A stretch of 40,708 nt of DNA. Origin: an uncultured beta proteobacterium. GTDB taxonomy: Bacteria; Pseudomonadota; Gammaproteobacteria; Burkholderiales; Burkholderiaceae_C. The notes under the pieces are model-generated. The model ran no database searches. It worked only from the letters and a program-made list of their open reading frames with translations, and was not told where the DNA came from. Location: contig CAIYGK010000250.1 in the NCBI GenBank assembly GCA_903925725.1, positions 1 to 40,708 on the forward strand, given 5' to 3'. Numbering within the stretch: position 1 is the stretch's first letter; each line of letters begins with the position of its first letter. The position numbers and the translations under genes were made by a program. Below are positions 1,437 to 10,417 of this stretch, one piece after another.

Positions 1437-1835
1437 TCAATCCGGAATGACGGCTGTGACTTCGATCTCGACCTTGGCGTCGTCTTCAATCAGGTCAGCA
1501 ATCTGGACCGCGCTCATCGCCGGATAATTCCGACCCATGACCTCGCGATAAGCCGCGCCAATTTCCTTCAAGCGCTCGACATATTCCTTCTTGTCCTTGA
1601 GATACCAGGTCATGCGAACGACGTGTTCAGGAGCGCCACCGGCCGCACCCACAACCGCAACGCAGTTGATCAGGGCCTGCCTGATCTGCGCGACCAGATC
1701 GACCGAGTCGAATTTGCACTGCGCGTTCCAGCCGATTTGACCGCCAACAAAAACCTGGCGACCGCGTGCCTCGATGCCATTGGCGTAGCCCTTGGGCGCT
1801 AACCAGCCCTCGGGCTGAAGGGTCTTGTGTGTCAT
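1437..1835 (-). CDS. RidA/YjgF/UK114-family enamine/imine deaminase
   Basis: KGYANG, VFVGGQIGW, YPAMSAVQI and KVEIEVTA motifs; last gene of the abm-type cluster. Confidence 0.92.
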   Translation of the reverse strand: MTHKTLQPEGWLAPKGYANGIEARGRQVFVGGQIGWNAQCKFDSVDLVAQIRQALINCVAVVGAAGGAPEHVVRMTWYLKDKKEYVERLKEIGAAYREVMGRNYPAMSAVQIADLIEDDAKVEIEVTAVIPD

Positions 1836-2989
1836 CCCGGTTCCTTCAAAAGCTCACGACCTACGATCAACTTTTGCACTTCAGTCGCACCTTCGTAAAT
1901 GCGAAGTGCACGAATTTCCCGGTAGAGCGATTCCACCTTGACGCCGACGCGCACACCCTGCCCACCATGCATCTGCACAGCGGCGTCGATGACGCGCTGG
2001 GCATTCTCGGTAGCCGTCATTTTGGCCATCGCGGCCTCACGCGTGGTAGGGAGCTTTTGTACGTCTCGTCGCCAGGCGGCGCGGGCAACCAGCAGCGCAG
2101 CAGCGTCGATGTCTGTGGCCATCTCACCGAGTTTGGATTGCGTGATCTGAAAATCTGCCAGCGTTTGACCAAACATCGGGCGCTGGCGCACGTGCGAGGT
2201 CGCCTCGTCCATCGCACGGCGCGCAAAACCGAGTGCCGCCGCCGCCACGGACGAGCGAAAGATGTCGAGTGTGCGCATCGCCACCTTGAAACCTTCACCT
2301 GGTGCCCCCAGCCGGTTGGCGACTGGCACTTTCATGTTCGTGAATTTCAGTCGTGCCAGCGGATGCGGTGCAATCACTTCGAGCCGCTCCGCGACCTCGA
2401 AGCCCGGCATGTCGGGCGTAATGACAAAGGCGGAGATGCCGCGTGTGCCGGGCGCTTCGCCGGTACGCGCAAAGAGCGTGTAGACATCGGCAATACCGCC
2501 GTTGGAGATCCAGGTCTTCTCGCCATCGATGATGTATTGATCACCCTCCAGACGCGCACTGCATGTCATGGCGCCGACATCGGAGCCGGCCAGCGGCTCG
2601 GTCAGAGCGAAAGCGGCAAGCCACTGACCAGCTGCAACCTTGGGCAGGACGTGCTGGCGAATCTCGGTCGAGCCGGCCAGAGTGATTGCGCCGGTGCCTA
2701 GGCCCTGCATGGCGAAAGCAAAGTCAGCCAGACCATCGTGATAAGCCAGCAATTCACGGGTCAGGCACAGCGAACGCGAGTCGAGTTCAGGAAGGGCGCC
2801 ACCAAACTGAGCCGGAACACAATAGCGCAGGAAGCCGGCGGCGCCGAGCTCGCGCACGAGGCGGCGACAGGCGTTGTCGGTGTCGTAATGGTCGATCGGC
2901 GCACACTGCCCGGTCCAATCGAGCAGGGCGTCCGAAAGTTGACGATGCTGCGGAGCGTAGAAAGGCAGATCGAGAAAAGAGCGGTCCAT
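1832..2989 (-). CDS. Acyl-CoA dehydrogenase (abm cluster)
   Basis: [30 protein letters not shown]. Start moved to the ATG at 2989 (MDRSFL), which has GGAGG upstream. Confidence 0.93.
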
Positions 2990-3000
2990 GATATGCCTCC

Positions 3001-3846
3001 TCAATCGCCCATGAAGGCCGGTTTCTTCTTGGCGGCGAAGGCTTCGAAAGCACGCCGGAAGTCGCCGGTCATCATGCAGATGGCCTGCGCCTGGGCTTCG
3101 GACTCGATCATCTCCTCGATACCCATCGCCCATTCCTGATTGATCATGGTCTTGGTGACGGTATGGGCAAACCAGGGACCATCGGCCAGGCCGCGCGCCA
3201 GCTCGTGCGCTTTCGTCAAGAGATCGTCAGAGCCGTGCAGGCTGTTGAAGAAGCCCCAGCTGGCACCTTCCTCGGCGCTCATGACTCGACCGGTCATCAG
3301 CAGTTCGTTCGCACGGCCCTGCCCGATCATGCGCGGCAGCAAGCCACAGGCGCCCATATCGGCACCTGCCAGGCCAACGCGTGTGAACAGAAAGGCGGTC
3401 TTGGCGCTGGGCGTGCCGAGGCGGAAGTCGGAGGCCAGCGCCACCATCGCGCCGGCACCGGCGCAGAAGCCGTCAATGGCGGCAATGACAGGCTGCGGTG
3501 CGCGGCGCATCGCCTTCACCAGGTCCCCGGTCATGCGTGTGAATTCCAGCAACTGCGGCATGCTCATGTGCGTCAGTGGTTCGATGATCTCGAACACATC
3601 ACCGCCCGAGCAGAAATTGCCACCTTCTCCACTGAACACCACCGCGCGCACGTCGCTGGCGTACTGCAGGTTACGGAACAGGTCGCGCAACTCCGCGTAG
3701 GACTCGAAGGTCAAAGGGTTCTTCTTGTCAGGTCGATTGAGGGTAATCGTGGCGACGCGGCCGTCGCCGTCACACGACCACTTGAAGTGGCGTGCCGCGT
3801 AGTCCCTGAAAGGCCGCTTGTTGTCTTGCATGGAAATTTCTGACAC
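3001..3846 (-). CDS. Enoyl-CoA hydratase/isomerase (crotonase family)
   Basis: [33 protein letters not shown] start with an AAGGAGA RBS. Confidence 0.93.
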
Positions 3847-3869
3847 GGTGTCTCCTTCTGTGTTCTCGA

Positions 3870-9390: not shown

Positions 9391-9440
9391 TGGTATTCTT
9401 GACCCTACTTTGTTACCGGTTCGACCACCTTCATCCAGCC

Positions 9441-9980
9441 CTAGCGTCTGCCGAGCTTGGCGACTGTTTCCAGAACCTTCTGCAGCCCGTGTTTGGCAAT
9501 CATCGATTCAACGCCGATCTCGACCTCGCCCAACTGCGGCTGTTGCTCCCGGACTTCCTCCTCGATCTCTTCATAGATCAGCGCTCCGTTGGGACACCAC
9601 TCGACGCATTTCGGCACCTTCAGCGGTGGCGTGTCTTCGCACATATCGCACTTCAGCGCGAGACCAGAGTCGGGTTCCTTGAACAGGTCGCGTGACGGAC
9701 AGGATGCACGGCAAAAGTCGCAATTGCTGTATTCCTTACCGTCCAGGATGTACTTGTTCCTGCTAGTACATTCAGCGGCCGTGTATTCGCCCGCATAGAC
9801 CGGCAGGTAGATATCCTTCAGCGGGTCCTTGATGATTTGAATGCGCGAACGTGTCGGGTTGATGCTGCTGTAGCGTGGCTTGGCGTGGAAGGCCGCACAA
9901 GCGAGCTCGCAGGCCCTGCAGCCAATGCATTTATTGGCATGGATGGTGATGCTTTTCCTGATTTTCTTGGCTTTGGCCAT
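9441..9980 (-). CDS. bamC: BamC-like multi-[4Fe-4S] electron-transfer subunit
   Basis: CIGCRACELAC.AFHA.P.YSS.NP, DGKEY..CDFCRASCPSRDLFKEPDSGL.LKCDMC, EIGVES. These match the BamC pattern as remembered; adjacent to bamB-like. Confidence 0.85.
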   Translation of the reverse strand: MAKAKKIRKSITIHANKCIGCRACELACAAFHAKPRYSSINPTRSRIQIIKDPLKDIYLPVYAGEYTAAECTSRNKYILDGKEYSNCDFCRASCPSRDLFKEPDSGLALKCDMCEDTPPLKVPKCVEWCPNGALIYEEIEEEVREQQPQLGEVEIGVESMIAKHGLQKVLETVAKLGRR

Positions 9981-9988
9981 GGCAGCGC

Positions 9989-10417
9989 CTATTCGTTGGC
10001 GGCTTCGAGCTCACGCCACTTGTAGTCGATCACCTCAAGCAGTACACCATTCATCTTCTTCGGATGCACGAAGGCGAACTCGCAGTCCCGAAACGAGCGC
10101 AGACCACCGATCATCGGGTAGCCCAAAGCCTGAATCTCTTCAACCGCTCTTGCTGTGTTGTTGACATTGAAACTGATCAGCATCACGCCTTCGCCGCGCT
10201 TCTCAATGAACTTGGCGACATCGCCGTCCGACGTCGTCGATTCCATCAGCTCAAAACCGACGCCACCAAGCCAGTAGCGTGCGACCCGGATTTTCTCGGG
10301 CTCATCGACGTAGGCATCGTCGGGCGCCGTCTTGCCCAGCATCGGCTCCCAGATCTTGCGTGCTTCATCGAGGTTGCGCACAGCGATGCAAATGTGATCG
10401 ATCTTGTTGACTTTCAT
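9989..10417 (-). CDS. VOC-family protein, methylmalonyl-CoA-epimerase-like
   Basis: IDHICIAV, FELMES, KFIEKRGEG, AFVHPK..NGVLLE; GAGGAG RBS. Confidence 0.88.
   Translation of the reverse strand: MKVNKIDHICIAVRNLDEARKIWEPMLGKTAPDDAYVDEPEKIRVARYWLGGVGFELMESTTSDGDVAKFIEKRGEGVMLISFNVNNTARAVEEIQALGYPMIGGLRSFRDCEFAFVHPKKMNGVLLEVIDYKWRELEAANE

Follow-up and report, generated by a model that had tools for sequence, protein, structure and literature searches.

A variant BamB-type reductase gene beside abmA in an uncultured betaproteobacterium as a candidate for anoxic 2-aminobenzoyl-CoA reduction

The nine-gene row and its variant BamB

The window analyzed here is the whole of a 40,708-nucleotide (nt) stretch from an uncultured betaproteobacterium (assembly GCA_903925725.1, contig CAIYGK010000250.1, positions 1 to 40,708), in which a gene for a BamB-type reductase lies near abmA, the gene for a 2-aminobenzoyl-CoA monooxygenase/reductase-type flavoprotein. 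Nine genes occupy the minus strand at 1437..10417 in the order VOC-bamC-bamB-marR-abmA-SDR-ECH-ACAD-Rid (ECH, enoyl-CoA hydratase; ACAD, acyl-CoA dehydrogenase); from VOC to Rid, the intergenic gaps are 8, 50, 7, 16, −1, 23, 11, and −4 nt. An initial annotation, made from the sequence alone, had placed all nine open reading frames on the minus strand with gaps of about 50 nt or less and the bamB stop codon 7 nt from the marR ATG, and both statements agree with our coordinates (gaps of −4 to 50 nt). It had also seen no obvious terminator or promoter in the row; a consensus scan of 1000-11000 found zero sites in the nine-gene junctions, which is weak evidence (overall, one promoter-like site vs 2.5 in shuffles and four terminator-like sites vs 8.9).

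Family scans and PDB searches uphold the labels VOC, bamC, marR, abmA, SDR, ECH, and ACAD given in that annotation. The VOC-fold protein (9989..10417) is methylmalonyl-CoA-epimerase-like, falls below the TIGR03081 cut-off for methylmalonyl-CoA epimerase (75.7 vs 114.95), and lacks one aligned His; bamC (9441..9980) encodes the Fe-S partner subunit (224 bits to PDB 4Z3W chain E). The MarR (6954..7472) is of an abm-associated type that accompanies the variant bamB even where abmA is absent, and the abmA product (4631..6937) is a two-domain flavoprotein (FAD-binding and OYE domains) that scores 1255 with NCBIfam PRK08255, whose cut-off is 1078, and that belongs to an abm gene set. Next come the genes of the abm beta-oxidation module, that is, an SDR (3870..4631) whose homologues sit after abmA in ordinary clusters, an ECH (3001..3846) above the PRK08258 cut-off, and an ACAD (1832..2989) identified by family scans. 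Two labels had to be revised: the ‘bamB’ (7480..9390) is a non-canonical variant, and the ‘ridA’ (1437..1835) encodes a Rid-family protein with a PAM motif where PAR is expected. Active RidA deaminases need a catalytic Arg; here Met takes the active-site Arg position in five of five aligned copies, and the TIGR00004 score is 58.5 vs a cut-off of 106.

The variant BamB matches the BamB chain of 4Z3W with 801 bits (the next-best family member reaches 224), and its predicted model aligns to that structure with a TM score of 0.90 and 56% identity in the structural alignment. C308 corresponds to the metal-ligand Cys322, the Fe-S cysteines C285, C288, and C292 are kept, and H246 and E447 correspond to His260, the proton donor of BamB, and Glu461, a residue listed beside it. 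In the accessible portions of PMC12096430 (statements from the literature refer throughout to such portions of the papers cited), Cys322 is the protein ligand to the metal in BamB, and Glu251, His255, and Glu257 are called invariant. In the alignment to 4Z3W, the Zn/proton-relay loop that carries these residues is shortened to AHGDGDEFH in the variant, with loss of Glu251 and His255; the variant also lacks 6 residues near 500 and has 4 additional residues near 540. The confidence of the model (predicted local distance difference test, pLDDT) is below 50 at 232-242, around the loop, so the model is uninformative on the pocket.

Trees of 84 and 148 homologues place canonical BamB apart from three non-canonical groups (FastTree, SH-like support only, midpoint root; the tree drawn contains 74 of the 148 rows, that is, all C1 and unassigned rows and a random part of the rest). 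The window protein belongs to one of these groups, C1, a single clade of 36 rows (SH-like 99) with four basal lineages and the motif AHG[ED]GD[EQA]FH. Since the protein lacks the ‘invariant’ loop, and since neither selenium nor a strictly anaerobic host goes with it (see below), we place it outside the canonical BamB family and file it as a new BamB variant that, judged from its residues, would work like BamB.

The other two non-canonical groups have profiles of their own (L and G numbers denote loci and genomes). Clade C2 (L017, L018, L044-L062, and others) is sister to C1, is mostly deltaproteobacterial, often has its own BamD-I, and shows zero anthranilate markers; in L019-L022, BamB paralogues without the metal-binding Cys lie directly before the C2 bamB. 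Clade B (motif AVDEDDSFHH; L026-L043, L165, L280) spans alpha-, beta-, gamma-, and deltaproteobacteria; its bamB twice lies beside abm-like ECH/ACAD/SDR genes, and there is low-level detection on toluene.

Gene neighborhoods and distribution of clade C1

We compared 150 bamB-type loci, 100 of which are at least 8 kb long (24 C1, 36 C2, 27 clade B, and 13 canonical). Among these longer loci, markers of the anthranilate route, that is, abmG, abmA, the abm-type MarR, isatin hydrolase with a 2-oxoacid oxidoreductase, and (in the window) the iaa cluster, occur at 16 of 24 C1 loci vs 0/36 C2, 0/27 clade B, and 0/13 canonical loci, and all four basal C1 lineages lie near such genes, including the deltaproteobacterial ones without AbmA. 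At least six distinct gene arrangements around the variant bamB converge on 2-aminobenzoyl-CoA. Besides that of the window, these are isatin hydrolase-iorA-iorB-VOC-bamC-bamB-marR without abmA (G062, whose isatin hydrolase matches PDB 5NMP with E 1.8e-133); VOC-bamCDEFGHI-bamB-marR divergent from rid-thioesterase-abmA (G694); bamD..I-etfBA-bamB-abmA (L016); abmA and an AndR-like regulator upstream of bamB, with abmG downstream (L042); abmG-bamB (L063, L071); and 2-oxoacid oxidoreductase-VOC-Mo enzyme-isatin hydrolase-bamB-bamC (L284). According to PMC9613470, the end product of the iaa route is 2-aminobenzoyl-CoA, the conversion of isatin to anthranilate belongs to the iad route, and iorA/iorB are iad markers; if isatin hydrolase acted first and the isatinate were then oxidatively decarboxylated, 2-aminobenzoyl-CoA would form directly.

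Isatin hydrolase is encoded by five of five deltaproteobacterial-type C1 genomes tested (in four on the bamB contig, 11-23 kb off, together with the same 2-oxoacid oxidoreductase, although these C1 loci had looked negative at first); the AbmA monooxygenase domain was not found in the five deltaproteobacterial C1 carriers tested. The association was also used predictively: a search of 54 genomes for isatin hydrolase gave seven positives, four of them among the 42 genomes picked for other bamB types, and the three of these four that were followed up all held a C1 bamB and a VOC gene within 16 kb (of the 42, only these three were searched for C1). A VOC gene adjoins 16 of 24 C1 loci, 2/13 canonical loci, and 0/63 others; as it precedes canonical bamB in two loci, we rejected it as a C1-specific gene. 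AbmG was likewise rejected as a universal partner, as five deltaproteobacterial-type carriers hold only ligases of 33-36%. What is conserved is the unit VOC-bamC-(DEFGHI)-bamB, with or without marR; since this unit occurs without abmA, we take the variant enzyme as the central result and its pairing with an oxic route as incidental.

These neighborhoods bear on the possibility that C1 reduces some other substituted aryl-CoA (e.g., 2-hydroxybenzoyl-CoA or an indole side product) and that shared catabolic islands explain the clustering. NCBIfam names the AbmA family salicylyl-CoA 5-hydroxylase, two Sterolibacterium-type C1 loci lie among unrelated CoA-transferase genes, and we found nothing among the C1 residues that would be diagnostic for an amino group. 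However, isatin hydrolase with the 2-oxoacid oxidoreductase, the iaa genes, and the AndR-like regulator converge on an amino compound in separate lineages, and the other bamB clades, which also lie amid aromatic-catabolism genes, show none of the markers; we regard another substrate as quite unlikely. From the gene context we infer that the AbmA of the window acts on 2-aminobenzoyl-CoA, not on salicylyl-CoA.

In the window, the predicted supply of this substrate flanks the cassette. Divergent from it is a gene for an abmG-like aryl-CoA ligase (10636..12258, plus strand; 356 bits with TIGR02262, just under the cut-off), a predicted 2-aminobenzoate-CoA ligase whose homologues (55-71%) adjoin C1 bamB in L042, L063, and L071. 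Family scans identify two iaa-like blocks, one on the plus strand (12267..20917; hydantoinase A/B, a second VOC, a CoA ligase, an SDR, and a dehydrogenase/hydratase fusion) and one on the minus strand (31961..40377; an IaaF-type ACAD, a B12 mutase pair, a Mo enzyme of the xanthine dehydrogenase family, and a family III CoA transferase), the latter being the predicted source of 2-aminobenzoyl-CoA from indoleacetate. The iaa gene names are in part those of PMC8360864 and in part names that we take to apply. The IaaF-type ACAD carries the GGG motif that is diagnostic for IaaF (PMC8360864). A C-terminal piece at 40367-40708 (minus strand) looks by eye like part of another hydantoinase B subunit, which would extend the iaa block beyond the contig end; at the other end (1-1200, minus strand) lies what is presumably a DegP-like protease gene, judged by eye, that leaves the contig and has an apparent short in-frame deletion near 760.

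Two further observations concern other C1 loci. Deltaproteobacteria appear to have an anaerobic indole/oxindole route (L284:348-9924, L319-L331) with genes for Mo enzymes, isatin hydrolase, a four-subunit 2-oxoacid oxidoreductase, FdhD, Rid, and a thioesterase. Directly after C1 cassettes lie trpB2 and a serine-kinase-like gene (L006:5315-7691) or trpA/trpB (L063:11983-13962).

Within the genus of the window, a BamB-type gene occurs in 19 of 144 genomes; the variant is present in 12, the canonical type in 16, and both in nine. The variant gene of the window is intact, and 11 other genus genomes conserve it at 86-95%; a sample of 400 further genomes from the order yielded no BamB type. The gene arrangement is real and conserved: a synteny search finds bamB-marR-abmA on one contig in 10 of the 12 genus carriers (window included), so the adjacency is not unique to this assembly; in the remaining two, the contig is broken at the junction or, in G062, abmA is missing. 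In the family of G549, a sample of 401 genomes contains 13 with any BamB type and four with the variant. Outside the genus, canonical bamB is also present in 10 of 11 C1 carriers tested, and C1 is accessory, nearly always an extra copy beside canonical bamB, as in the genome of the window. Canonical class II bamB lies at G000:C422 (L087) in the host and at L106-L122 and L125-L128 in the genus; selenium-free canonical class II genes with oah-/had-like neighbors occur in 16 of the 144 genus genomes, with a complete bamB-I in G023, G062, and G155. Sterolibacterium-type genomes have two C1 copies (L010/L169-L170, L171-L172), which in G549 flank an inverted bamCDEFHI set.

The single bamB-marR-abmA operon, a predicted transcription unit, is a lineage-specific fusion. 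Only one sub-lineage of the genus has the one-operon form (10 of 12 carriers), and L016 and L245 have a looser version; in G023, marR and abmA lie about 140 nt apart with an operator-like site between them, and abmA is divergent in G694 and missing in G062 and in five deltaproteobacterial genomes tested. Before VOC lies an AT-rich block of 37 nt (10509..10545, minus strand), a likely promoter/operator that is conserved in the window and six kin loci and is probably a degenerate copy of a palindrome located near abmA in 12 of 18 ordinary abm loci of the genus; comparable sites precede abmA in G023, the rid-abmA unit in G694, and the cassette in G062. An operator matrix built from those 12 loci gives intergenic sites before the cassette or abm genes in L001 and L011 (13), L005 (16.7), G062 (15.2), and G694 (14.4) and nothing in L004, L006, L013, L016, L042, L245, L252, and L284. 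The copy in the window scores below 8, and the background in its own genome reaches 15.8; with a failing copy and an equally high background, control of both branches by the abm-type MarR is only suggestive. An oxic/anoxic pair would suit fluctuating O2, which fits the lake-derived relatives, and some tungsten oxidoreductases tolerate air (PMC13328260). The proposal in the initial annotation of two routes for one aryl-CoA gains from the comparative neighborhoods, which favor 2-aminobenzoyl-CoA far beyond what the window alone offers, and loses the single operon as a general feature. On gene context, a dual oxic/anoxic route for one aryl-CoA is plausible, its predicted substrate is now well supported, and the operon itself is secondary.

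A candidate anoxic reductase for 2-aminobenzoyl-CoA

The host assembly (G000; 83% complete, 759 contigs; nearest named relatives Comamonadaceae/Rhodoferax assemblies) encodes haem-copper oxidases, a split narG, a class I reductase (bcrCBAD, G000:C249:3792-8604, L086; above all four cut-offs), and a TupABC-like transporter (204 bits to the TupA model on a partial sequence, under the cut-off of 400). Its second, canonical bamB, which a contig end truncates, has a GSPQEM loop and follows had-, oah-, and hydratase-like genes. Given its oxidases, its narG, and reductase genes of both classes (I and II), the host looks facultative; haem-copper oxidases occur in 4/4 and narG-type genes in 3/4 genomes examined, so the strictly anaerobic host associated with class II reductases is not what we find. 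The gene selA is found in 0/4 genomes, and the BamF of G023 and G694 has CNWCCY with Cys and no selenocysteine (Sec). In G023, class I (C76, about 29.5-34.6 kb), canonical class II, variant, and abm genes lie within about 36 kb.

A BamDEFGHI module is present in G004, G015, G023, G062, G108, and G164 and was not found in G107 and G127; G023 and G694 have a private DEFGHI set inside the cassette, which the lineage of the window lacks. G062, at 98% completeness, encodes two BamBC pairs and a single BamE; BamG, BamH, and BamI are identical in both clusters of G694; and the ferredoxin domain of BamE feeds BamC in the solved complex (bioRxiv 10.64898/2026.04.10.717634); together, these make it plausible that canonical and C1 BamBC heads share one BamDEFGHI module.

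A cultured betaproteobacterium also carries the variant: G694 encodes P0008 (source name Georgfuchsia toluolica protein), which is 88% identical to the variant BamB of the window, and the lengths and masses of G694 proteins match toluene proteome rows in the accessible supplement of PMC9290046. In these rows, the 653-residue canonical BamB has 1716 spectra vs 184-431 for the four Bcr subunits, and the text of PMC9290046 credits the class I reductase on toluene. Thus, an abundant canonical BamB is already present in the published toluene proteome, undiscussed by the authors in the text available; it belongs to GTOL_v1_13262-13269 (L167-L168), has about four times the spectra of BcrB, and is annotated as aldehyde:ferredoxin oxidoreductase only. 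Among the supplement rows matched, none fits the 636-residue variant BamB, the variant BamC/BamD, or AbmA (the variant locus tag was inferred from gene order, and absence from the proteome is not proof of silence); BamE (two unique peptides) and VOC (five spectra) of the variant cluster are detected on toluene.

The module and proteome data bear on whether C1 is just a benzoyl-CoA reductase isoenzyme, or a lineage orphan after loss of bamDEFGHI, with the abmA operon a deletion accident. The DEFGHI genes kept in the cassettes of G023 and G694 were lost in the lineage of the window, the electron module was not found in the host assembly, and Geotalea daltonii has several bamB homologues per genome, without assigned substrates (PMC13119186). 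However, the variant gene is intact and conserved in the other genus carriers, C1 is not detected among the matched rows on toluene where canonical BamB is abundant, and the neighborhood signal is specific to C1, and we consider an isoenzyme or relic improbable.

On the observed gene content, residues, clade, and neighborhoods, our preferred explanation is that the variant BamBC reduces the ring of 2-aminobenzoyl-CoA anoxically, paired with the oxic AbmA route and borrowing BamDEFGHI, a proposal that we regard as evenly balanced in its entirety. That the substrate of C1 is 2-aminobenzoyl-CoA is probable, and the greater share of that expectation goes to a reduction of the ring after which ammonia is lost by hydrolysis. 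2-Aminobenzoyl-CoA would come from the iaa route and from the AbmG-like ligase; BamBC would dock on the electron-bifurcating BamDEFGHI module of a housekeeping class II reductase encoded elsewhere; and C3/C4 would receive two hydrogens at the metal-pterin site, as they do in BamB, yielding an amino-cyclohexa-1,5-dienoyl-CoA (reduction at C3/C4 is expected because the Cys ligand and His260 are kept). The enamine would then tautomerize and hydrolyze, perhaps aided by VOC, to ammonia and 6-oxocyclohex-1-enoyl-CoA, and Oah would open the latter, bypassing Dch and Had; either ring orientation would give an enamine that loses ammonia by hydrolysis and converges on this product. AbmA would attack the same 2-aminobenzoyl-CoA with oxygen, and the abm-type MarR may control both the oxic and the anoxic branch. 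As a precedent, 2-fluorobenzoyl-CoA reaches the 6-oxo intermediate after ring reduction (PMC5742626). Remnants of oah, internally deleted or truncated, are located before VOC in G694 and G062 (L164:12651-13007, L124:3531-3713), which fits an Oah-bound 6-oxo product.

The same enzyme could instead deaminate 2-aminobenzoyl-CoA reductively to benzoyl-CoA, which a canonical class II or a class I reductase would then dearomatize. Such a reaction would agree with the anaerobic route of Azoarcus evansii, in which a ligase and a 2-aminobenzoyl-CoA reductase lead to benzoyl-CoA (reviewed in PMC4539516), and with a canonical reductase kept in nearly all C1 hosts, no intact oah in any C1 operon examined, and a remodeled active-site loop. 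However, with His260 and the Cys kept, C3/C4 reduction would leave a double bond at the carbon that bears the amino group, and ammonia would not simply be eliminated from such a position; moreover, BamB is rare in the family of G549 (13/401 genomes), so the activity in model denitrifiers may stem from a different enzyme. We consider reductive deamination less likely than ring reduction, yet a strong rival to it.

Several observations nevertheless weigh against ring reduction of 2-aminobenzoyl-CoA by C1. The markers were picked from C1 neighbors, and close kin or near-identical contigs make up many of the 16 marker-bearing loci; abm-like ECH/ACAD/SDR genes also lie beside clade-B bamB in L280 and G694, outside the marker count; and the flanks of L010, L012, L238, and L243 contain no marker (L010 and L012 have isatin hydrolase elsewhere in the genome). 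Loop loss was rejected as a substrate marker, as clades C2 and B share it, and Rid was dropped as an enamine deaminase, as the catalytic Arg is missing. An oah-VOC pair also precedes canonical bamB in L074 and L076, so the oah remnant may be inherited baggage, and the reported anaerobic product from anthranilate in A. evansii is benzoyl-CoA. Finally, BamD, BamE, and BamF were not found in the 83%-complete host genome, nor was BamE in G107 and G127, and the class I reductase of the host might serve 2-aminobenzoyl-CoA instead.

More generally, and tentatively, with our confidence a little short of even, class II reductases may be modular, with one BamDEFGHI core and swappable, substrate-specific BamBC heads, the C1 head being that for 2-aminobenzoyl-CoA, the compound at which the anoxic degradation of indole, indoleacetate, and anthranilate arrives, and run in facultative lake betaproteobacteria under the same regulator as AbmA. 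The anoxic 2-aminobenzoyl-CoA step, an activity without a gene in the accessible review (PMC4539516), gains a specific candidate gene and a marker motif. If the proposal is correct, an enzyme class with one characterized ring-reducing member (PMC13328260, a 2026 survey) would acquire a second substrate, and head-swapping on a bifurcating complex would occur in nature. The complete selenium-free class II sets in oxidase-bearing betaproteobacteria depart from the rule by which facultative anaerobes rely on the class I enzyme.

Comparison with known systems

The searchable literature, outside of which most subscription papers lie, links no BamB type to 2-aminobenzoyl-CoA and does not describe this arrangement, so a prior description is possible; the accessible parts of PMC6449761, PMC10803450, PMC9765128, PMC6114531, and PMC7500099 contain nothing on the C1 variant. 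In PMC13328260, the Geobacter enzyme is the only tungsten oxidoreductase with a non-aldehyde, ring-reducing activity, and related enzymes form clades 62 and 63. The variant resembles the BamBC(DEFGHI) complex of Geobacter metallireducens (4Z3W) in its AOR-family fold, Cys322, the Fe-S cysteines, His260, Glu461, and BamC, and in the DEFGHI genes of its kin. It differs in the missing Glu251/His255 loop, its separate clade, its status as an accessory copy, Cys instead of Sec in the BamF of its kin, the lack of selA (4/4 genomes), hosts with oxidases and narG, and linkage to anthranilate genes.

The abmA, SDR, ECH, ACAD, Rid, and ligase genes form the same set as the abm cluster of A. evansii (pathway in PMC4539516), and the MarR and the palindrome are shared with ordinary abm clusters of the genus; unlike the A. 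evansii cluster, the window has a reductase cassette between the ligase and marR-abmA, and its AbmA shares 74-78% identity with copies from other genera vs 55-58% with the ordinary genus type. With the anaerobic 2-aminobenzoyl-CoA reductase activity of A. evansii, the variant shares its predicted substrate and anoxic role; that activity differs in its reported product, benzoyl-CoA, and no gene is named for it in the accessible part of PMC4539516. As in the iaa cluster of Aromatoleum aromaticum, the window encodes a Mo enzyme, hydantoinase, ligase, CoA transferase, B12 mutase, and an IaaF with GGG; unlike that cluster, its iaa genes lie in two opposed blocks, with no thiolase seen in the window, and are joined to both downstream routes.

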